49,322 nucleotides of DNA, taken from positions 1 to 49,322 of IMG/VR virus record IMGVR_UViG_3300016476_000832; one strand, 5' to 3'. Shown one piece after another: positions 2,827 through 49,322 of this stretch. The position numbers and the translations under genes were made by a program. This DNA is from a virus. Its lineage: Duplodnaviria; Caudoviricetes. The notes under the pieces were generated by a model, which saw only the letters and a program-made list of their open reading frames with translations, was not told the DNA's origin and made no database searches. The first letter of the stretch is position 1; the number at the start of each line of letters is the position of its first letter.

Positions 2827-3753
2827 ATGGAAAAAATCACCCTAGGAAACTATAGTGTAAAAGTTCTAGACCCCAAAATTTTAGTTTTTGAGGGCGCCCT
2901 TAAAGATCCAGAAGCACTAATTAACTATTACGAGACCTGGGACCAATGGAAGGGTTGGTACGGTTTTGGGGCTCAGTCTGCCGATGAGCACATGGAGGGG
3001 GACACTGTAGTAGCCACAGATCACTTCCCCACAGAAAAAGACTTTGAGGCAATCCTAAATATTTCAGAGAATCCACTTCGAGACGAGATTCACAAAAGTT
3101 TTAGAGAAATCTCTGAGCTTTATGTAAATTACACCGGAACAACAATGCCAAACTGGCTTTATGAGGCAAACTGGTGTCTAGCAAAATATACACCCGACGT
3201 AGATCACATTAATAATGATGAACAAACTATGGGCTACCACACGGATTACCAGCAAGACCGCCACGGGCAGCCAGGAAATAAGTTTGCAATCACTGCAGTG
3301 TATTACCCCAACGATGATTATGAGGGAGGGGAGATATCATTTAGAATTTTAGTTCCAGGAACTTTTATTTTGGATAAAGAGATAACCTACAAACCAAAAA
3401 AAGGTGAAGTGGTAATTTTTCCATCTGGGAACCCCTACTATCACGGGGTAAAGAGGATTTGGAATAAGCACAAGTACATTGTTCGAGTTTATTGGACTTG
3501 GGATGATCCAGGACTAGAAGAGTGGCATGCGCTACGTAAAAAGTATGGAAACGAAAAATTTGAACAGCTAGAGTCAGAGCGCGTAAGAAGACATGACTTA
3601 CTGATGTATGACCCAGTCCAAAGACCAATCCTTACTTTTGATCAATACTATGATCTACTCGAAAAAGGTAAATTACCTGCCCCAACAGACGAGGCAGCCA
3701 TAAATGAGCTACGCAGAAAAATCATCGAATCTAACGGTAAAATTTATGAGTAG
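2827..3753 (+). CDS. 2OG-Fe(II) dioxygenase, P4H-like
   Basis: HTD, YYPNDDYEGGEISF, YYHGV, KHKY motifs. ATG at 2827 preferred over TTG at 2815. Confidence 0.88.
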   Translation: MEKITLGNYSVKVLDPKILVFEGALKDPEALINYYETWDQWKGWYGFGAQSADEHMEGDTVVATDHFPTEKDFEAILNISENPLRDEIHKSFREISELYVNYTGTTMPNWLYEANWCLAKYTPDVDHINNDEQTMGYHTDYQQDRHGQPGNKFAITAVYYPNDDYEGGEISFRILVPGTFILDKEITYKPKKGEVVIFPSGNPYYHGVKRIWNKHKYIVRVYWTWDDPGLEEWHALRKKYGNEKFEQLESERVRRHDLLMYDPVQRPILTFDQYYDLLEKGKLPAPTDEAAINELRRKIIESNGKIYE

Positions 3754-5012: not shown

Positions 5013-5390
5013 ATGAGCTATTTGCGTGGCAATATCCATGATCTAATCACAGATCAGGGGTCTACTGTACACCAGGTATTTACCATCAAAAACTCAGCTC
5101 GTAGGATAATTCCCCTAACTGGATATACGGCTCGTATGCAAGTCAGACGTTGGGATGTGGAAACCAGGGATCCTGTTCTAACTACTATTGCCGAATATAC
5201 AACAGAAAACGGGTATCTAACCGTTAATGGAGCTGCAGGTACCGTAACTCTTCTTATTCCACCTGCAGATATGGCAGCATACGAGCCTGGTTCTTATGTT
5301 TACGATATTGAAGTCGAGACAGCTAATGCTGGAGATACCACTCGGATCATCCAGGGTAAATTTATTGTGAGAGCAGAGGTAACCAAGTAA
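5013..5390 (+). CDS. virion Ig-like/BppU-like adaptor protein
   Basis: DQGST...[11 protein letters not shown]...GTVTLLIP...YVYDIEV...RIIQGKFIV is a pattern typical of phage fibre-anchoring beta-sandwich proteins. TAATG-coupled to the collagen gene. Confidence 0.7.
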
Positions 5391-7366
5391 TGGTACTCTC
5401 CGACAATTTTGCGTATGTTGATGTAAAAGGTCCAGGACCCCAAGGACCAGCTGGTCCAACCGGCCCCGCCGGGCCTGCAGGTGGTCCAACTGGAGCTACC
5501 GGAGCTACTGGCCCAGCGGGTGCAACCGGTCCAACCGGCGCAACCGGTCCACAGGGTCTAGCTGGACTTTCTATAACCGGACCTACTGGCGCTACAGGAC
5601 CTCAAGGAATTCCAGGTCCCACAGGTCCAACTGGTGCGCAAGGTATAGCAGGACTATCAATCACTGGACCTGCTGGTTCGACTGGTGCTACTGGCCCAAC
5701 GGGTCCCACAGGTCCAACTGGTGCGCAAGGTATAGCAGGACTATCAATCACTGGACCCACTGGAGCTTTAGGTCCTACAGGTCCAACTGGTCCACTAGGT
5801 CCAACTGGTGCACCTTCTAATGTCACAGGTCCTACAGGTCCAACTGGACCTACTGGTCCCCAGGGATTAGTTGGTCCGACTGGTGCAGACTCTACAGTTA
5901 CAGGACCAACAGGACCAACAGGACCAACAGGACCAACAGGCCCGATTGGTCCGACTGGTGCAGACTCTACAGTTACAGGACCAACAGGACCAACAGGACC
6001 AACAGGTTCTCAAGGTATATCGCTAACACTAATTGGTTCCGTCCAAAACGTAGAAGATCTTCCACCAAGTGCTTCACTGAACGAAGCATATATTGTTCAG
6101 TCAGACGGCAACCTATATGTCTGGGATGGATCTGGCTGGGTAGATGCAGGACAGATTGTGGGACCAATTGGTCCTACTGGCCCTACAGGTCCTCAAGGTG
6201 AAATCGGCCCTACAGGTCCTCAAGGCATCCAGGGTGAGCAGGGCATTCAGGGTGAAGTCGGCCCTACAGGCCCTACGGGTCCCCAGGGTGAGCAGGGCAT
6301 CCAGGGTATTCAAGGAATTCAGGGCGAGATTGGACCAACTGGTTCCCAGGGTGAGATTGGACCTACTGGACCACAAGGTGATCAAGGTACTCAAGGTGAA
6401 CTTGGACCAACTGGACCTACTGGACCTCAGGGTGATCAAGGTATTCAAGGTGAACTTGGACCAACTGGACCTCAGGGTGATCTCGGACCAACTGGACCTA
6501 CTGGACCGCAGGGTGAGCAGGGCATCCAAGGTATCCAGGGAATCCAAGGCGAGCTTGGACCTACTGGACCGCAGGGTGAGCAGGGTATTCAGGGTATTCA
6601 AGGTGAAGTCGGTCCTACTGGACCACAAGGTGAACTAGGACCCACTGGACCTCAGGGTATTCAGGGTGAGATTGGACCCACTGGACCTCAGGGTGAGATT
6701 GGACCTACTGGACCTCAGGGTATTCAGGGTGATGTTGGCCCTACGGGAGCCACGGGACCAACCGGAATGGGCGTCCCACTCGGTGGAGATACCGGACAGA
6801 TTCTTGCAAAAGAATCTAATGCTGATGGTGACTTCATTTGGATTGACAACTATGCTGACTGGACTGCTGTAGTTAAGCATCAAGTAAGGGCAGATCAGAT
6901 CCTAACTAAGGGTCAGGCTGTATATATCAGCTCTTCTGATGGAACCAATATGAGAGTGTCTAAGGCCTCGAATTCTGGAGAGATGACATCCAGCAAAACA
7001 ATGGGAGTCATAGCCCAAGACCTGGCTATTAATGGCCTTGGGTTTGTTATAACAGAAGGTCTTCTATCTGGACTAAACACATCTACTGCCACTATTGGTG
7101 ATCCTATTTGGCTAGGAACCGACGGTAACATGATTTTTGGTCTAGCAAACAAACCAACCGCACCCGCTCACCTAGTATATCTAGGAGTTGTAACCAGAGT
7201 AAACCTAAATAATGGTGAAATTTTTGTCAAGGTCCAGAACGGCTTTGAGCTAAATGAACTCCACGATGTAAAATTCAACGATCTACAAAACGGAGATTTG
7301 CTATCCTATAATTCATCCACCAACCTATGGCAGAATATTAGCGTTGTTGACGGGGGCACCCCATAA
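5390..7366 (+). CDS. collagen-like fibre protein (Gly-X-Y repeats)
   Basis: Two Gly-X-Y blocks (GPT-rich, then GPQ/GEQ/GIQ-rich) separated by a short globular insert ([13 protein letters not shown]). C-terminal globular domain ends in DGGTP. Confidence 0.92.
5615..6006 (+). repeat. nucleotide-level duplications within collagen gene
   Basis: 56-bp exact repeat at 5615 and 5702; about 60-bp repeat at 5871 and 5946; tandem GGACCAACA 9-mers. Confidence 0.85.
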
Positions 7367-33694: not shown

Positions 33695-34102
33695 CTAGCC
33701 TAAAGGTGCGTCTAAAGCAGCACCAAAGGGCATGCTTGACTCAGGGTCGAATTCGGTCGGTGGAATGTATGGCTTCACTTCGTTAGAAGGGAAGTCATCA
33801 AAGCTAGTCGGATCATTGTCGGAGACGTAGCGTCGACCAGCAGACGAAGAGCCCTTATTGTAGGCATACTTATATGTCGTGCCATACATAGTTCTGTATA
33901 CAGAGCTCCTCAAATTACTTACTGCTTCTGCCTCTTCCCCAGACTGATATCTGGAGTCTTCTTCGAAGAAGTAGTGCAAAACATCTACCATCTCAGGAGC
34001 CTCCATGTCCGCTAACCGTAGGCCGTATGTTAACGCTTTGCCGTTAACGTATGGCCAGAGGTCTACTGCCCAACTGATTAGTCCTCTGGCTGCTGATTTG
34101 GG
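33695..34102 (-). CDS. tail assembly chaperone, -1 frameshift extension (G-T type)
   Basis: Lies in the -1 frame relative to 34078..34410 and is entered at C CCA AAT. Confidence 0.8.
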   Translation of the reverse strand, partial: PKSAARGLISWAVDLWPYVNGKALTYGLRLADMEAPEMVDVLHYFFEEDSRYQSGEEAEAVSNLRSSVYRTMYGTTYKYAYNKGSSSAGRRYVSDNDPTSFDDFPSNEVKPYIPPTEFDPESSMPFGAALDAPLG

Positions 34103-41160: not shown

Positions 41161-44100
41161 TTAGGTAAGGAGTCGGAGTAGCTTGCTCATCTCAGATTGG
41201 ATCTCTCCCTGAGAGTAAACATCTGCTCCGGACATGTAGGACTTCAGACTCTTTGTGGCGATATCTGCGTCCTCTTTACCGATCTTGGCCTCGACTCTGG
41301 TTATCATCTGCTCAATTAGATCCTTGAGTCCGACCGGTAGATCGCTAAATCTAAGTTTTGAAGACTCTTTTCCGAATGGTAGCGGTAGGTTAGCAATGGT
41401 CTTGCCCAACTCTGCCGCACTCAAACGGACGTTCTCCAAAGATCTAGGGTTTAGTGCCTTAGCATCAATTCTATCAATCATGTCTAGAAGCTCACTGCTT
41501 GCCTTTGCTGATTTGGCGTAGTCACCTGCAAAGTCAAGGTTCTCGGCCTCTTCGACCTTCTTGAGTGCACGAGAGAGCCCTGCAACGCCTAGATCCTGCT
41601 TTAGGCGAGCTAGAACCTTGCGGTACTTACCTTTAGCATCACGAGGCTGGTTTACACCAGAAACATACTTAGGTCTACCGTCTTCATCTCTTTCGACTGG
41701 CTTTCCTTTATTAGCTTTAACCTCTTCAGCGGCCTTGATCTCTTCCTCGGTTTGCTTGTCAGCTTCTTCTTTTGCCTTACGAAGCTTCTCCAGCTCCTCG
41801 TCCGAGATCTCTTCTACTTTTGGGCCAGCAGCCACCACCGCCTCAGATGCAGCTTTAGCTAACTTCCTCATAGTAAATGCTTTACGCTCTAGCTCTAAGT
41901 TGGCCATCTCTTTCCACTGCTCTGGGATTAGCTTCCACTGACCTAGCTTACGAGCCTGCTTCATGATGTGCTTACGAACTTCGCGACGCTCTGATGCTTT
42001 TGCGCGGCCGTATGCTTGAATAGCATTCTTTAGATCTTCAACGTTGCGAATTGGGTAGGCACCATCTGGCATAGCCTTGCCTTCTTTGGCTAGAGACATA
42101 CGCTCTTCCTCAGAAATCTTTGCCATCTCTGCTAGTGCAGCAGTTAGAGCTGCCTTCTCTCGCATTCTCTCTGCGCTAGCAGTTAAAGATTGCATGTTAG
42201 ATGCGCGGAGCTTCTTCTTGGCTTCCTTGACTCTTGACTTTAGATCTGGAGCAGTAGCTGCCAACTCTCCAAGCATTTCTGCCTTGGTGGATAGTGCGCA
42301 TGCAGCGCCAGAGCACTTCATCATAGCTAGGTAGCTGGCACCAGCTGCAACTAGAGCTAGAACCTTACCGGAAGCAATCATCGCACGGGCAGTTGGGAAT
42401 CCTGGAACGTTTACCTGGCAGATAGCAACAAGCTCAAGGGAGCCATTGATTGGACGCCAGTCGCCTGAAGGAGCAGATGCACGAAGAGCGCGGATCTGAA
42501 GCTCATCTAGGTTTGGTCGTAGCGATCCTGCACACCAAATACCGTACTGGTCCTCACCGACGTGGATGTCAGCCACAGCTGAGGCAGTGTCGTCGTAATG
42601 CTTTGCAGCAGATGCTGCATCAACATTTAGAGGAGCATGTCCGCCAGCCAGTGTTAGTTGACCTACTGGAACATCCGTACCATCTTCGCAGCGGATTACT
42701 CCAGTGTGGAAGTAAGCATACTTGCTACGCGAGCGTGGTGGCTTGGTTGCGCGTGGGAGACCAATGTGGTTGACATTCCAAGCGGCAATGTGGCCATAAA
42801 CACGACCATCATCTGTGACAGTTAGCGGAGTAGGTCCAGTCAGCTGAGGGTACTTAAACCAGTCTGCTGGCGGGGTCATAGGAATTTCAGACTTAAGGAA
42901 GCCTGATGCTAGGATCGGCTCTACATCAGAAAAGTCTTCTAAAGACTCCTCATAGATTCCATCTTCTGGGGTCACGTTTTCCTCCTGATCCCCCTCATTT
43001 TGCAGCGAAATAGCGCATTCTTGGAATGCAGGCTTAGCTACAATTGTAGCAGCCATTATTCTTGCCTTATTTATGGTAAGTTTATCCTTACCCAAGGTTT
43101 CTCCATCTTCAGAGTTTTCGGTCTTCGCTGGCTTATCTTCTTTTGCCTCGAACTGATCTAAATCTACAGAAACTCCTCTTAGGAACCCGTGACGAACTAG
43201 ACGCTCTGCCTCTCTACCATAAGGTCCAGTATCGAAAACTCCATAGGCATTGCCCATGCCGCCCTCGATGCGCTCGATGTAGTCAATGCGGCCGACTACA
43301 ACGGACCCATCGTGACCCTGACCAGTTTTGATCTGCCAGAGTAGCGGTACAGGTAAGTCCCTGATAGAAATAGCACCAGACTTAAACTTACGTCCGTCCC
43401 CAGATTCCACCTCTTCCGGGACCAGCATAGGGATAAAGAATCTAGCACCCTCCTTAGCTGGAGGAGCAGCAGCAATTAGAGCAACTTTTTGCCTTACCTC
43501 TGCAAATTTAGCTGTTACCTCTGCTTTTTGGATCATAAGCTGAGTAAATTGCTCTTCATTAGAGAAATTAAGGGAGGCAGAGGCTCTAACACTCTTTTTT
43601 CTACCTGGATTTAGCTTGCTTCCAGTGTAGACACCAGTAGCTTCCTTGTGACGAAGCTGGCAATAGCCCTTCGCACGGGGTCCCATATACTTAGAAAGCT
43701 GACGAACGCAGCGGGTCCAGTCACCAGGGGTGCCCCAGCGAATCTTGGCAGCGCCCTTACCGCGGGTCCAGTAGCGACGAAGTGCTTCAGCGTTTCCGCG
43801 GTTACGGTCTAGGCCACCAGCAGCAATAATCGCGTTGTCAATGTCTCCAGTAGACGCAAACCACAATCTCATTAGAGCTGATGCAGCAACAGCATTGGCC
43901 TTTGCCTCTAGCCCATCTACCTCAATTAAAACATCATTTAGTGCAGTCTTTGGGAGTTCTACGACTGGCGGTGGGGCAGGGGATCTTAGATCACTAAGAA
44001 TCTGTGGGTCTGGTACCCACTTCTTGTCTTGACGCTTATATGTTACTGGCTGAGTGCTACTTGCAGAAGCCGGGACGATTGCAACCAAATCCATTACAGC

Positions 44101-45726
44101 CTGGACATCGTCAGGGGATACAATGGCTAGATACTTAATTACGTCAGCGGTATCTGGAGTCATCTGCTCTTCTTTAGCAGATGCCAGTATGGATAGATCC
44201 ATACCATAACGCTTCTTCATGTAGTCGCGATCAATCTTGGTGATACCCTTACCGCGATACTGCTTAGGAATATCCTTATCCTCGAAAAGCTTGTATTTCC
44301 TTTGAGATGCAACCCACGCAGGCCAGTCGTTCATCATTTGCTGAACTTCTTTTTGTCCTAGTGGAGGTAGGGTTCCAGAAAGTCTAGCCTTAGCTCCAGA
44401 TGGGGTTCTTGGCTCACCTAAAATTCCAGATAGATCAAGCGGAGCATTAGATCTAGGGACCATAGTTGGACCATCAAAATCTGCCTCGGACCTTAGGTAA
44501 TTGGGGGCAACCGAAATCATTTTGCCGCTGTCTAAGCGGAAATTGATTTTGTTTTTGTCGTAGTCAATCGAATCGATTGTTCCGCTACCTCTACCAGGGT
44601 CGTTCCCTACAACGGCTCGGCTTCCTACTTTAATAAACTTTCCGCCAGCATCTCTCGGCTGCGTCTCGGCCTTCTCGGATAGAAATTCTGGATCGAGTTT
44701 TCCATCTCCGTCTTTGTCGGCTTTTGATGCAGGAGCCGCAGCGGTCATGGGGTCTCCGCCCAAAGCCATGACGCGATCAACTAGCTCCCAGTCCTCTTCT
44801 GGTAGGCCTTGCTTAGCTAGGAAGTGCTCTTCTTCATCCAGCTCCTCGATGGTGACCTTCACGTTAGGATCTACAGATAGTTTGGATGCAATTAACATAG
44901 CAGAGTCAACATCTACTACAACGTGAGTGCATTCGGGACTGTGGCCTTCATCCAACTCATAGTCATATTTCCAGATATTGGCGTCAACATTTCCCATGTC
45001 ATCCCAGATGTTGTCGTCCCAAACATAGACTTCACCATCTGCTTCGATCTTATATAGACGGTCAATCCCAGAGCCATCCATGTGGATTCGAACCATAAAC
45101 TCTGGTCCGTACCCCTCTTCAAGTTCGTATGCTGCCCTAAATGAGTCTACATATCCAGAAGCTCTAACAGCTTTTTCTTTTTTATTTTCGCGCTCAACAA
45201 TTGCAGAGGCCCAGCGCTTAGCTGCGTCGCCACCCCAAAGTGCCCAGGCAATACGACCATTTGATGGGAAGTTGTCTTCGCCTGGAGCCCAGCCCTTACC
45301 CTTCTTGTCAACTTCGTGACGAGGGAAGTACTTGGCAATGTGACGAACTTTTTCAATTCCAATTTGTCCACCCTTAGCAAGGGTTCTGGCAGTGTTGAGC
45401 CCTACAGACGTGCCACCACGCTTGTGCTCTTTTCTCCACTCCAAAGCTTTTTTTGCTTCTTTTTGTACACCCTCTGGAATGCTATACATACGCCGGCCAG
45501 ATGAGACTGCAAAGTCTTTAAGTTCGTGTGACTCCAGAGCTAGATCACATAGGCGAGCCTGTCCATCGCTCAAAGGGGTGTCTGCGTTGTTCCAGTCAGT
45601 AAAAGAAATAAGCCCCTGGGGGGCACCTGAAGCGACAATAAGATCGAGTTCAGTGTTTAGGACGACAGCATAGCTATCATTTCCATACAGCGCTAGATTA
45701 GCGTTGCGTCCTAGAAGAATATTCAT
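41161..45726 (-). CDS. large multidomain capsid maturation protease protein
   Basis: Central protease-like domain (SGDGR.F, P.PLLWQ, GHDG..VVGRI, GVSVDLD), several other phage head-associated modules, located directly upstream of the capsid gene. Confidence 0.85.
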   Translation of the reverse strand: MNILLGRNANLALYGNDSYAVVLNTELDLIVASGAPQGLISFTDWNNADTPLSDGQARLCDLALESHELKDFAVSSGRRMYSIPEGVQKEAKKALEWRKEHKRGGTSVGLNTARTLAKGGQIGIEKVRHIAKYFPRHEVDKKGKGWAPGEDNFPSNGRIAWALWGGDAAKRWASAIVERENKKEKAVRASGYVDSFRAAYELEEGYGPEFMVRIHMDGSGIDRLYKIEADGEVYVWDDNIWDDMGNVDANIWKYDYELDEGHSPECTHVVVDVDSAMLIASKLSVDPNVKVTIEELDEEEHFLAKQGLPEEDWELVDRVMALGGDPMTAAAPASKADKDGDGKLDPEFLSEKAETQPRDAGGKFIKVGSRAVVGNDPGRGSGTIDSIDYDKNKINFRLDSGKMISVAPNYLRSEADFDGPTMVPRSNAPLDLSGILGEPRTPSGAKARLSGTLPPLGQKEVQQMMNDWPAWVASQRKYKLFEDKDIPKQYRGKGITKIDRDYMKKRYGMDLSILASAKEEQMTPDTADVIKYLAIVSPDDVQAVMDLVAIVPASASSTQPVTYKRQDKKWVPDPQILSDLRSPAPPPVVELPKTALNDVLIEVDGLEAKANAVAASALMRLWFASTGDIDNAIIAAGGLDRNRGNAEALRRYWTRGKGAAKIRWGTPGDWTRCVRQLSKYMGPRAKGYCQLRHKEATGVYTGSKLNPGRKKSVRASASLNFSNEEQFTQLMIQKAEVTAKFAEVRQKVALIAAAPPAKEGARFFIPMLVPEEVESGDGRKFKSGAISIRDLPVPLLWQIKTGQGHDGSVVVGRIDYIERIEGGMGNAYGVFDTGPYGREAERLVRHGFLRGVSVDLDQFEAKEDKPAKTENSEDGETLGKDKLTINKARIMAATIVAKPAFQECAISLQNEGDQEENVTPEDGIYEESLEDFSDVEPILASGFLKSEIPMTPPADWFKYPQLTGPTPLTVTDDGRVYGHIAAWNVNHIGLPRATKPPRSRSKYAYFHTGVIRCEDGTDVPVGQLTLAGGHAPLNVDAASAAKHYDDTASAVADIHVGEDQYGIWCAGSLRPNLDELQIRALRASAPSGDWRPINGSLELVAICQVNVPGFPTARAMIASGKVLALVAAGASYLAMMKCSGAACALSTKAEMLGELAATAPDLKSRVKEAKKKLRASNMQSLTASAERMREKAALTAALAEMAKISEEERMSLAKEGKAMPDGAYPIRNVEDLKNAIQAYGRAKASERREVRKHIMKQARKLGQWKLIPEQWKEMANLELERKAFTMRKLAKAASEAVVAAGPKVEEISDEELEKLRKAKEEADKQTEEEIKAAEEVKANKGKPVERDEDGRPKYVSGVNQPRDAKGKYRKVLARLKQDLGVAGLSRALKKVEEAENLDFAGDYAKSAKASSELLDMIDRIDAKALNPRSLENVRLSAAELGKTIANLPLPFGKESSKLRFSDLPVGLKDLIEQMITRVEAKIGKEDADIATKSLKSYMSGADVYSQGEIQSEMSKLLRLLT

Positions 45727-45787: not shown

Positions 45788-45934
45788 TTATTTAGCGGGC
45801 TCTTCTGTGTCGTCGTCGATCTCATTTGTAGGATTACCTACAATTTTTGCCAATAAAACCCAGTATTCCGGGTCATCCTGAGTGTATCCGCCAAGAGTCT
45901 CAATGCTGAGCTTGGGCTTATTTTCTTCAGCCAT
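45788..45934 (-). CDS. small acidic protein (48 aa, not in ORF track)
   Basis: MAEENKPKLSIETLGGYTQDDPEYWVLLAKIVGNP...; TAATG-coupled to the ArdC ORF. Confidence 0.65.
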   Translation of the reverse strand: MAEENKPKLSIETLGGYTQDDPEYWVLLAKIVGNPTNEIDDDTEEPAK

Positions 45935-48207
45935 TATTCTTCATCTCCTTCTTGGCCTTGTTTACCTAGATATGTATTATATCCCTCTAGAGGACTCCAG
46001 TCTCCTAGATCCATTCCAAGCAGATAATCCACAGCTTGCTGAGCCTTAGAAGCGGAGAGCTGAAGAATCTCAGGGTTTCCGTCCTTTAGAACCCTAAACC
46101 AGCTCTGCATATATGCCTGAGTATTGTCGACATCGTAATTAACGCCAAACATTTCACCCAGGATTGCAGCTCCCATTTCAGCAATAAGCTCTTCCTGAGC
46201 CCTAGCCTGACCATCTGGGTTACCGTAATCTTTTACAAGCTCGGAGCGGTCCAATCTGCTTGGGTGTCCGGTGCTGTGGGTTAGCTCGTGCATTAAAGTG
46301 TCGAATATCTCTTCAGGAGACTCAAACTGAGCCAGCCCAGGAAGAGTGATTCTATCTGAGAAAGGCGACCAGTTGGGGGAGCTGGAGTGATCTGAATAGT
46401 CGCCAACATATGAATAGTCAATAAGTGGAGCCTTTAGTCCCTTTGCTTCCATGCTCTTTATGTATCGATCAATAATAAACTGCTGAGCATCTACTGGCTT
46501 CATGTCAGTGCTTGGCTTATCATCTGGAAGATTTAAGCCATCAATCTGAGAAACGTTAAAGACAGTTGCCGTCTTAAAGTAAAGCTTGCTAAACCCTGTG
46601 GGCTTTCCGTCTTTGTCTAGCAGTGGATCGCCATTTTTATCTTTAGTGACTAAGAACTTGACAGGAACAAGAATCGGCACACCCTTTTCTCCCTTGCGAA
46701 CCTGTCCGCCTAAGTCTTTGGCTTGGTTGTAGGTCATCCAGCGAGAGTCAGTGTATCCCTCAGACATTGAAACAATCTTCAACCAGAATGAGTTGAAACC
46801 GCTATATAGTCTCTTGCTAGACGGGTTTCTCGGGATTCCGCTACCGCCAGTAAACTCGAAGCCGTCTTTAAACCCCTTGCGCCATGGAATTATGGAATTT
46901 CCAAGCTTATTCAACTTTTCAATCAAAGCATCATAAACTTTTTGCTTAGCCTTATCACTACTAGAGACATCTTGGTCTAGCGAAACCTCAACTAGGTCCA
47001 TCGCTTCAATCGAAGCCTGGCTAGTGTCGGGGTTAATGCTGGAAGCCAACGGGGTAAGCTCTGTGTTTCTGAACTCGGTTGGGGTCTTCGGCTTCTTAGT
47101 CTCTGATGGGTTCCATTTCGGCATAGTGTCTATGTCGTTACCGAGCATGTAGTCGATAGCAGCCTGAGCCTTAACGGAAGCATCAGCAATGTCTTCGTCA
47201 GACAGACCCTCGTTTAGCGCCTGGGTCTTGATGTAGTTAGCTGAGTTTCTGGTGTCGTAGTCCAAGCCAAACATCTTCATAAGCATTGCAGATGCCATCT
47301 CTGCAATTACTTCCTCGCGGGCTCTCTGAGCTGAATCAGTTCCAGCCTGCTGAGTCTCAGGGCGGTTCTGGCGGAAAGCTGCTCCGGTGCTGTGGATCAG
47401 TTCGTGTGCAAGGCTTTGTACCCAAGCTTCGTCGCTCTTGAACTGGCTACGAAGAGGTAGCTTTACCCTGTCCCTGGAGTAGTTAGGGCTGCGGATCGGT
47501 CTGCCCGTGTCTGGGTTGACAGATGTGTCATCAATCTTCATTCCTAGGATTGAAGGAATACCGCGACGCTTGCGCTCAATCTCTGCTCGGTTGAATCTGT
47601 CTAGGATTACTTCGAAAGCCTCTTTAGGAGTGTACTTAACAGTCTCGGGGGCTTCGTAGGTTGGCATGCCGTCAAACTGCTCGGCGTTGAATACCTCTAC
47701 AGGAGTGAACTTAACAGTCTCTAGCTTGTTGCCGTTCTCGTCTTCGTACGAGTGGAGAACCGGAACTGCAATCATTGTTGGCGCAGCTTCAGGCTTTAGA
47801 GATGCTCCGTAAGACTTTTCTGCTTCCGCCTTTGTCAACCAGCGAGGGTCCGAGTAGCCAGCCTTGTCGGCAGCAGCCGAAAGGGCAACTAAGTTGAATG
47901 CCTTGTACTCTTGACCGCTCAGTGGGTTTACTGGACTGCGTCGGTCAGTCTTTGTAAAGTTCCTGAGCCACTGAGCAGGAGACTTGAAAGCGTCCTTAAC
48001 TTCCTGCATGATAGACGCGACTACGTTTTTGTTTGTAGATACGTCTTCAGCTGCCTTGTTTGGTAGCTCTGCAGAAGTTACCTTTTCGGTGGGCGCGGAA
48101 GATAACCTTAGCCTTAGTTCGCTAAATACGTCGTCAATCTCTTTCTGAGATATGACAGCGTTTTGGTCAAATCCGTCGACCCCCGTGTCGGGGGTTACGC
48201 TTTTTTT
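45934..48207 (-). CDS. tandem ArdC-like (ssDNA-binding domain + zincin metallopeptidase) x2; probably the frameshift-fused C-terminus of the upstream protein
   Basis: Two units, each with N....Y..FN...L......GY.D.RW.T...A and VFN..Q.DG, then HELIHSTG or HELTHSTG and EE.IAEM. Frame is open to 48252 with no start codon upstream of ATG 48009. Confidence 0.85.
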   Translation of the reverse strand, partial: KKSVTPDTGVDGFDQNAVISQKEIDDVFSELRLRLSSAPTEKVTSAELPNKAAEDVSTNKNVVASIMQEVKDAFKSPAQWLRNFTKTDRRSPVNPLSGQEYKAFNLVALSAAADKAGYSDPRWLTKAEAEKSYGASLKPEAAPTMIAVPVLHSYEDENGNKLETVKFTPVEVFNAEQFDGMPTYEAPETVKYTPKEAFEVILDRFNRAEIERKRRGIPSILGMKIDDTSVNPDTGRPIRSPNYSRDRVKLPLRSQFKSDEAWVQSLAHELIHSTGAAFRQNRPETQQAGTDSAQRAREEVIAEMASAMLMKMFGLDYDTRNSANYIKTQALNEGLSDEDIADASVKAQAAIDYMLGNDIDTMPKWNPSETKKPKTPTEFRNTELTPLASSINPDTSQASIEAMDLVEVSLDQDVSSSDKAKQKVYDALIEKLNKLGNSIIPWRKGFKDGFEFTGGSGIPRNPSSKRLYSGFNSFWLKIVSMSEGYTDSRWMTYNQAKDLGGQVRKGEKGVPILVPVKFLVTKDKNGDPLLDKDGKPTGFSKLYFKTATVFNVSQIDGLNLPDDKPSTDMKPVDAQQFIIDRYIKSMEAKGLKAPLIDYSYVGDYSDHSSSPNWSPFSDRITLPGLAQFESPEEIFDTLMHELTHSTGHPSRLDRSELVKDYGNPDGQARAQEELIAEMGAAILGEMFGVNYDVDNTQAYMQSWFRVLKDGNPEILQLSASKAQQAVDYLLGMDLGDWSPLEGYNTYLGKQGQEGDEE

Positions 48208-48221
48208 GAGAAGTGTTCCTC
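48179..48221 (-). other. putative programmed -1 frameshift cassette
   Basis: On - strand: GAGG-N10-A AAA AAA-GCGUA-ACCCCCG-ACA-CGGGGGU. Confidence 0.72.
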
Positions 48222-49322
48222 GACTAGCTTCTGAATCTCTGAAGCTAGCTCGTCAGAGAAATTGAAGTTACCTGAACCAATTGTCTGGCCATCAACCTTT
48301 ACGGAGTAAGCCGAACGCTCGTTATCAGAGTCAATATCTACTGATACACGGCCGTCCTCCGATGTGTAGGTGCCATCGCTAGGCTTCTCAGCTCCGCCCC
48401 CAACTGGATCAACAAGCTCGTTGCGGTCGAACTGATCAAACAAGTCAGAACCAACAGACTCGGCATAACCAGCTGGGTTAAGCTCAGGGTCGGTAGCCAT
48501 TTCGTCCATAGTTTCTGGAGTTGTTGGCTCATCTGGAACTTCTGCCTCGGCGGCTGCCTGCTTTTTTGCAACCAAGCCGCGGAGTCGGTCTGCATAGTCT
48601 TCTAGATCATTTGCTAGATCTCGGTCTCCACGGTTTTCACGAAGATCCTTAACAAGCTTGTCGATTCTATTAGCTACGTCTAGTGCCTGCTCTGGGGTTC
48701 TAGCATTATCGCCATCTTCCACAAGACTGTCGATCTCTTCTGGTCGGTAGCTACCGGGTCTAACATCTAGGTTGTAATCTGCAGCTTCGTTAGCAGCCCA
48801 AGCTAGTGCCTCATCCCTGTCTTCGAAGGTCATCTCGTCGCGAGAACGGTCATACTGAACAGTAGCAGTGAAGGTTCCGTCCTCATTCTCTGATACACGG
48901 GCCTCTGCTCCACCAGATCTAGAGTCTCCATAGGCTCCAGTGTCGTCAAGCTTTTCTACTATGGCATCTACGTCAGTCTCGAAATAAAGCTCGCGCTCTA
49001 TCTCTACCTTGTCGTAAATTTCATCTAGATAGAATCCTATTGATCCATCCTCGTGCCTAGCTGCAACTCCAAATCCGAACTTATCAATTAGGTCAGACTC
49101 CATTCGGTCAGCCAATTCATTTATGCTCTTAGATAACTCTGGAGAAATGTCTCTAGAGTTTGCTAGGTCTCGCATTTCATTCACGATGTCGCTTGCAATT
49201 CCAGCATTATCCGTCTCAGAGAATTCCTTGTATTCGTCTGAAATTGTGTTCTGACTTACACCCACTAGGTCTAAAGCATCTAGTTCTTTGGAAAGTCTAT
49301 CTGCAATGTCTTTGGTGCCGAT
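48195..49322 (-). CDS. large acidic protein, C-terminal part (start lies beyond window)
   Basis: Frame is open to the window end; D/E-rich; no recognised motif; lies upstream of the head genes. Confidence 0.85.
   Translation of the reverse strand: MGTKDIADRLSKELDALDLVGVSQNTISDEYKEFSETDNAGIASDIVNEMRDLANSRDISPELSKSINELADRMESDLIDKFGFGVAARHEDGSIGFYLDEIYDKVEIERELYFETDVDAIVEKLDDTGAYGDSRSGGAEARVSENEDGTFTATVQYDRSRDEMTFEDRDEALAWAANEAADYNLDVRPGSYRPEEIDSLVEDGDNARTPEQALDVANRIDKLVKDLRENRGDRDLANDLEDYADRLRGLVAKKQAAAEAEVPDEPTTPETMDEMATDPELNPAGYAESVGSDLFDQFDRNELVDPVGGGAEKPSDGTYTSEDGRVSVDIDSDNERSAYSVKVDGQTIGSGNFNFSDELASEIQKLVEEHFSKKA

Follow-up and report, generated by a model that had tools for sequence, protein, structure and literature searches.

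A predicted −1 ribosomal frameshift cassette between a giant phage head-region gene and a tandem ArdC-metallopeptidase extension

Results

The viral DNA analysed here (IMG/VR record IMGVR_UViG_3300016476_000832; "the window" denotes this whole stretch of 49,322 nt) is a fragment of a tailed phage in which head protease, major capsid, tail, and tape measure genes all lie on one strand. At its end, the minus strand carries the 3′ end of a giant acidic head-region open reading frame (ORF) (48195..49322; 375 codons, cut by the contig edge), which shows 49% identity to residues 1333–1702 of the protein of the complete relative L103. The −1 frame is open over 48252–45934 (772 codons), and the extension that it encodes, 757 codons from a heptamer at the junction (45934..48207, minus strand), consists of a linker of ~60 codons and two units, each combining ArdC-N with a metallopeptidase (MPTase). 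An earlier reading of the letters alone (the sequence-only reading) had proposed that a dnaX-style −1 frameshift fuses the two, and the present computational analysis followed up this proposal.

The junction, on the minus strand throughout, contains a slippery heptamer A_AAA_AAA (48201..48207) in the register TCA AAA AAA GCG TAA, the frame-0 stop TAA as the second codon past it (48195..48197), and, beginning 5 nt past the heptamer, a 7-bp GC-rich stem-loop ACCCCCG-ACA-CGGGGGU (48179..48195), which is the predicted 3′ stimulator. A Shine-Dalgarno (SD)-like GAGG lies 10 nt 5′ of the heptamer (48218..48221). All these elements were found where the sequence-only reading had placed them, and the sequence gives the same transframe peptide, ...HFSKK/SVTPDTGVDGF, with ...HFSKKA* as the unshifted end. 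The 81 nt of 48120–48200 fold at −28.7 kcal/mol (z = −4.0, a score that covers the whole 81 nt including a second hairpin), none of 200 shuffles was equally stable, and the hairpin was present in both the minimum free energy and the centroid structure. We ranked 219 in-frame X_XXY_YYZ sites (Y = A or T; ORFs of at least 250 amino acids (aa); 22 sequences) by the strength of their 3′ hairpins. The 12 strongest, three of whose loci came from motif scans, were all the giant-gene site of family members, including that of the window, and all 15 cassette sites were within the top 19. The minimal cassette spans 30 nt.

A protein-alignment search, which was blind to the DNA motif, returned 160 loci, and the 16 with at least 42% identity were analysed; the 144 left out showed at most 37% identity and were single ArdC units. 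Twelve of the 16 family loci had a forward cassette with the −1 offset, two (one lineage) a reversed cassette, and two none; heptamer, hairpin, and offset, whose conservation the sequence-only reading had named as a check, are thus kept in most of the family. The 12 include L031, L032, and L034, which are almost identical to one another. Of 16 additional loci, most of which repeated genomes already included or ended short of the site, five entered the hairpin ranking. A scan of the window's 375-aa upstream part against viral contigs gave no confirmed relative. The forward layout was X_XXA_AAA-G-NN-stop(TAA/TAG)-CCCCC(loop)GGGGG, with variable loops. At all 14 distinct forward sites (family loci, motif-derived loci, and the window), the heptamer fitted X_XXY_YYZ in the frame-0 register and TAA or TAG occupied the equivalent stop position. 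X was A in the clade that unites the window with L103, L023, L024, and L216 (support 100/100 in the head-protease tree) and C elsewhere. Lactobacillus phage A2 also uses C_CCA_AAA.

In the −1 frame, the stem imposes the codons CCC for Pro and GGG for Gly. Both occurred at 14/14 forward sites; in these ORFs, CCC accounts for 8.5% of Pro codons and GGG for 6.5% of Gly codons, and synonymous sites near the cassette were 60–70% changed. When the first three heptamer bases were left free in a motif scan, XXXYYYZ was found in 16/16 matches flanked by a long ORF in both frame 0 and frame −1, a count in which some genomes recur, versus 2/35 of the others. One of these 16, L018/L213, is an unrelated small two-ORF gene resembling a tail chaperone, with A_AAA_AAA-stop-CCCCC/GGGGG at L018:9528-9555 on the minus strand.

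Single loci showed further features. A related phage carries the forward cassette (L183:1661 and L216:5998) with a −1 extension that lacks ArdC and ends in a HEFGH motif; L216 is without ~230 residues found in L183. Inside the −1 extension of L026, A_AAA_AAG at L026:9712, with a hairpin of −11.4 kcal/mol and a −1 stop in the next codon, is a possible second, truncating shift site, and an in-frame TGA (L026:7488-7490) splits the giant ORF of this locus into 902 and 580 codons. A second break in L031 is a 115-nt deletion relative to the 99.96% identical L032 and was read as an error or lesion.

The reversed cassette of L033 and L035 reads C_CCA_AAA in the frame-0 register; its 7-bp stem, a strong hairpin, differs from the forward one, and a slip into the −1 frame meets a stop at the next codon. 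The long product is encoded in frame 0, and the predicted products are ~3,470 and 4,800 aa. In L033 it sits at the homologous junction, and L033 is sister to the forward-polarity L032 (99/98). Reversed wiring was also found inside giant ORFs of phage DSL-LC01 and its relative L271, with no ArdC detected there; the L271 ORF extends beyond both locus ends. In DSL-LC01, the annotated 3,289-aa ORF WJZ48510 (OQ999401.1, ~59,438; L234:13439) contains an unannotated reversed cassette, with C_CCA_AAA in frame 0, a stop in the next −1 codon, and a strong GC hairpin; a slip there would end the protein near residue 2,215. The sequence-only reading had held that plain in-frame fusions in all relatives would speak against a frameshift. 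Of the in-frame fusions, L033 and L035 retain the reversed cassette, while L030 and L104 are true plain fusions, shorter, with one ArdC unit and no cassette. In both (L030:6809-11101, L104:1501-5454), a small upstream gene (229 codons in L103) is also fused, giving a single ORF through one ArdC unit. Since L030 nests beside L103 on the portal tree (moderate support, 92/94), its cassette appears to have been lost. In-frame fusions of the giant N-domain to ArdC were found in L030, L104, and P0046 and in eight others with a weaker N-domain match; the fused product is thus a natural protein.

Because relatives encode the long form in frame 0, with the slip truncating it, the long form cannot be assumed to be the minority product, as the sequence-only reading had it. 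Both products are predicted in either wiring, which suggests that both forms matter. In dnaX, a role reversal has been noted where efficiency is near 50% (PMC5009743; this and the other papers cited by PMC number are cited for the sections used here).

A scan for reversed cassettes gave 31 matches including family members; its pattern forces a −1 stop in most matches, and many are chance Pro-Lys-Gly codons, so that the matches are uncontrolled leads. Outside the family, in unrelated phages, reversed C_CCA_AAA with a −1 stop and GC hairpin occurred 5′ of the MuF-like part in portal-NUDIX-MuF-like ORFs (L257:5001; L267:5001-5030, minus strand), where a slip could yield portal protein both with and without its extension. 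Further matches lay in a portal fusion of at least 2,793 aa (L258:5001), at the end of a portal domain (L265:4536-4565, minus strand), and in a large gene adjoining a portal-like gene (L266:5001-5033, minus strand, and L278).

The complete upstream ORF of relatives has 1,565–1,943 codons, and ~3,300–3,500 precede the site in L033 and L034. The carrier that it encodes is acidic (isoelectric point 4.1–4.4) and gave no Pfam or PHROG hit above the cut-off and nothing usable in the ESM Atlas, where the best TM by query was 0.27; one PDB sequence hit (E 0.025) was discarded. The motif R[DH]xxG[RKQ][FWY] occurred 36 times in 196 ORFs, 33 of them in the giant-protein N-terminus or in head-protease genes. 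RDxxG[RKQ][FWY] was present twice in the head protease of the window and in giant N-termini (L103, L024, L025, and others), with similar strings near the L258, L265, and L266 junctions. From its sequence distribution, this motif may be a shared head-targeting signal.

The tandem module in the −1 frame, also described in the sequence-only reading, comprises two ArdcN and two MPTase-PolyVal stretches (PF08401 and PF18818 above the cut-off), with HExxH and the downstream Glu intact. Unit 1 (47137..48030, minus strand; HELIH 47406-47392) matched ArdC 6I89/6SNA (E 3.5e-15), and unit 2 (46057..46953, minus strand; HELTH 46290-46276) matched phrog_7245 (E 6e-100). Directly past the cassette, before the constant ArdC units, relatives insert varying modules such as ParB-like (PF02195) and ADP-ribosyltransferase (ART, PF03496) domains; the DNA directly 3′ of the cassette is a hot spot for swappable domains. 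The predicted long form thus combines several conflict domains in one large polypeptide whose architecture varies among relatives, as in polyvalent proteins.

The gene order in relatives is terminase, portal, ferritin-like gene, small gene, giant gene with ArdC extension, head protease, and capsid, and the giant gene lies between portal and head protease in every locus reaching far enough. The ferritin/Dps-like gene is immediately 3′ of the portal gene in the family (L103:3510-3983). Downstream in the window is a 1,521-aa head maturation protease-like gene (41161..45726, minus strand) with two RDxxG[KR][FY] motifs, which also occur at the giant-protein N-terminus in relatives; this gene is a single ORF in the window, two ORFs in L025 (L025:14312-14403), and three in DSL-LC01 (L234:17804-22723).

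Among 50,697 phage records, the giant N-domain matched only DSL-LC01, a metagenome-assembled phage with predicted host Actinomycetia (PMC10611076); the words "frameshift" and "ArdC" have no occurrence in the sections of that paper used here. WhiB, a marker for calling freshwater actinophages (PMC6802176), was found in 4/5 related records. The match to DSL-LC01 and the presence of WhiB make an actinobacterium the likely host of this freshwater phage.

As the sequence-only reading had implied, the junction is a second candidate recoding site besides that of the tail assembly chaperone. The latter candidate, C_CCA_AAT (34096..34102, minus strand), lies between ORFs 34410-34078 and 34129-33695 (−1 offset), directly upstream of the tape measure gene; by eye, it has no GC hairpin resembling that of the head region. 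The plus strand encodes a 658-aa ORF with eight collagen triple-helix stretches (5390-7366). A tRNA scan of three short stretches detected no tRNA.

Discussion

Programmed −1 ribosomal frameshifting is the best reading of the conserved cassette, and on its sequence features we consider it highly probable. Ribosomes would pause on the hairpin 5–6 nt downstream, and the tRNAs in the P and A sites would re-pair one base back (Lys/Lys on A_AAA_AAA, Pro/Lys on C_CCA_AAA). Unshifted ribosomes would stop two codons on, and shifted ones would continue in the −1 frame, adding ~755 residues. Judged by L103, the products would be ~1,700 and 2,450 aa, and the cassette would determine how much of the carrier is made with cargo relative to carrier alone.

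Several observations weigh against this reading. In E. coli, A_AAA_AAA is reported to be much less shift-prone than A_AAA_AAG (PMC5009743); the outcome may differ in a host that has two lysine tRNAs. The family loci are related to one another and hence are no independent trials, and the change from A to C in the heptamer is a single event on one branch. The base pair beneath CCCCC/GGGGG is broken in L023, L024, and L032, an SD-preceded GTG (−7.4 kcal/mol) stands 43 codons into the −1 frame in L183/L216, and the plain fusions L030 and L104 indicate that two products are dispensable in some lineages. The SD-like signal is also not conserved. It reaches −5.9 kcal/mol in the window (10th percentile of its own background) and is replaced by AGGAG in the nearest independent relative, X2, and only 4/14 forward sites fall in the top 10% of their own-ORF background. 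An SD as a required element was rejected on this count, and GAGG is at most a lineage-specific, optional helper. Of the dnaX-style architecture in the sequence-only reading, the slippery heptamer with a 3′ hairpin is retained, and the SD and the heptamer A_AAA_AAG, which never occurs at these sites, are not.

The short acidic protein and the longer ArdC-N/metallopeptidase form are probably both head-associated. Whether the long form is packaged as counter-defence cargo, as the sequence-only reading had suggested, is evenly balanced in our judgement. We infer the slip and its efficiency, as well as packaging and an anti-restriction or self-processing role. Many polyvalent proteins are thought to be packaged, and ART, ParB-like, and MPTase are hub domains among them (PMC5512222). 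The case for packaging consists of gene position, a short shared motif, and analogy. Three points tell against injection as the role. No MuF domain was matched by Pfam or PHROG in the complete upstream ORFs scanned. ArdC-N binds single-stranded DNA and occurs mostly in conjugative elements (PMC5512222), whereas the phage here has double-stranded DNA. ArdC of R388 has to be expressed in the recipient rather than the donor, and it works without its protease activity (PMC7213743).

With the frameshift itself real, the long form might instead act in the infected cell after late expression, in DNA protection or head-assembly processing, with no injection. This alternative concerns function and is compatible with the frameshift mechanism; forms of 2,400–5,000 aa are large for injection, and the lack of a detected MuF domain points the same way. 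The position of the gene between portal and head protease, the RDxxG[RKQ][FWY] motif common to the giant protein and the head protease, and cargo domains (ART, ParB-like, and MPTase) that are those of virion-borne polyvalent proteins (PMC5512222) argue the other way, and we regard a role confined to the infected cell as possible but somewhat doubtful.

If the two ORFs were instead separate genes, the ArdC ORF would start alone, at ATG 48009 (48007..48009, minus strand), at a rare start codon, or by re-initiation, and the hairpin would be an antisense terminator or processing site. Gene callers do list the ArdC part as its own protein from this ATG, the hairpin with its T run on the plus strand scores as terminator-like, and, among the other 35 motif matches, many resemble terminators, with the stem followed by a T run. 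Against this, ATG 48009 is the first ATG, GTG, or TTG in the −1 frame, 66 codons past the heptamer, and has no ribosome-binding site (anti-SD duplex energy +0.6 kcal/mol versus −1.2 to −8.2 at nine other window starts). The position of its Met is Leu in 9/9 aligned relatives and in 15/16 database proteins matching the flanking pattern, and a profile alignment of the two units places it in the part matching the first helix of unit 2; the frame of over 60 codons without a start and the place of this Met inside the first ArdC helix thus agree with the sequence-only reading. Across relatives, the first start codons of the −1 ORFs are at unrelated positions. Coding constraint in the −1 frame begins at the heptamer, and the 66 codons up to ATG 48009 show purifying selection (pN/pS 0.20/0.61 against L103 and 0.27/0.70 against L023). 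ATG 48009 therefore probably encodes a Met inside the first ArdC-N helix and is no conserved start, with no independent start predicted for the −1 ORF. The C_CCA_AAA sites leave only T4 on the opposite strand, and a terminator leaves the fixed −1 offset, the stop position, and the reversed cassettes unexplained. We consider separate genes improbable.

Under transcriptional slippage, RNA polymerase would add an A at the A7 run, and the fusion would come from ordinary translation of an mRNA with A8. An A7 run is present in the window, L023, L024, L103, L183, and L216, and the T. thermophilus dnaX works by slippage (PMC5009743). In bacteria, slippage is tied to runs of nine A or T (PMC5009743), but 8/14 forward sites have only A4, as C_CCA_AAA, with the spacer, stop, and hairpin unchanged. 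The heptamer moreover keeps the ribosomal register with frame 0 at every forward site. XXXYYYZ thus survives a base change that leaves an A run of only four, a length below that at which PMC5009743 describes polymerase slippage, and we judge this explanation very improbable.

An assembly error in the homopolymer, or a deletion that recently inactivated a plain fused gene, might be suspected because an A run stands at the break, contigs of X1, the possible source run, terminate at the site, and plain fusions exist (L030, L104), but the chance is negligible given the same offset in 12/16 family loci at protein identities as low as 42%, 8/12 with A4 only, the intact HExxH motifs of the extension, and an independent 74.6-kb contig from a different study (~95% identical) that crosses the site with A7 and no indel. 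Together, the conserved offset and this contig confirm that the frame break at the site is no assembly error. The check was made on DNA at the contig level, a scope outside which rare A8 reads and mRNA variants fall; the contigs of X8, X9, and X10, which reach only 7–19 nt beyond the A run, were excluded from the bridging count.

Beyond programmed frameshifting at this junction, we tentatively propose that X_XXA_AAA and a short GC hairpin act together, in head-associated polyvalent genes, as a portable switch of product ratio. This switch would set how many copies of a capsid-targeted carrier bear effector cargo, work in either polarity, flip between sister phages, and serve as a landing site for swappable conflict domains; the same device, reversed, in the portal fusions L257, L267, L258, and L265 of unrelated phages would make it a general, unannotated way to mixed portal/head-cargo populations. 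If the frameshift reading of the family cassette is true, a whole group of uncultured 110–140 kb freshwater phages is misannotated, the "ArdC gene" being the tail of a 2,400–5,000-aa protein, and a truncating frameshift lies concealed in plain-looking giant ORFs, WJZ48510 of DSL-LC01 among them. Translational recoding would then be linked to the polyvalent conflict proteins of phages. For the evolution of shift efficiency and polarity, the forward, reversed, and lost cassettes form natural pairs.

The components, phage −1 frameshifts and polyvalent proteins, are known; their combination is new as far as the literature search shows. That search, over titles and abstract openings, without supplements and with subscription papers mostly uncovered, found no published report of a polyvalent or ArdC protein with a frameshift cassette and polarity switching. 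Among annotated actinophage frameshifts, 2,397/2,476 are tail chaperones (PMC10885494), and phage frameshifts outside tail chaperones are already known in capsid and tail genes of T3/T7, A2, and Listeria phages (PMC5009743).

The E. coli dnaX gene resembles the cassette in its X_XXY_YYZ heptamer with a nearby stem-loop, in nested short and long products, and in the occurrence of both polarities (PMC5009743). It differs in using A_AAA_AAG with a 5′ SD and a 3′ stem-loop, where the present sites have A_AAA_AAA or C_CCA_AAA and no conserved SD, and in encoding a replisome subunit; in the window, the slip would make the long form, of a phage head-region gene. In T3/T7 gene 10, Lactobacillus phage A2, Listeria phages A118, A500, and PSA, and tail chaperones, a shift near the end of a virion gene similarly adds a C-terminal extension, and in-frame and shifted versions coexist among relatives, as here (PMC5009743). 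Their extensions are an Ig-like domain or a chaperone tail, whereas those described here are 750–1,800 aa of enzymatic or DNA-binding conflict domains, on a carrier of 1,500–3,500 aa of no known family, with a polarity that flips between sister phages. The carboxysome proteins CsoS2A/B offer a functional analogy: they are the two lengths of a large scaffold-like protein, and the −1 shift behind them has a 3′ stem-loop but lacks an SD (PMC5009743).

Polyvalent proteins (P1 DdrB, N4 virion RNA polymerase, and MuF fusions; Iyer et al. 2017, PMC5512222) share ArdC-N, MPTase, ART, and ParB-like domains in very large proteins of the virion-gene region. ArdC-N is C-terminal and doubled here, in contrast to its mostly N-terminal place in conjugative elements (PMC5512222), and, unlike in MuF-fused effectors, a MuF domain was not found; the main text of PMC5512222 has no occurrence of "frameshift". 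ArdC of plasmid R388/pSa (6I89, 6SNA; PMC7213743) has the same ArdC-N and HExxH metallopeptidase (residues 42–287), whereas in the window, as predicted from its sequence, the module is a tandem duplicate on a giant protein, with no start of its own, in a phage late region.

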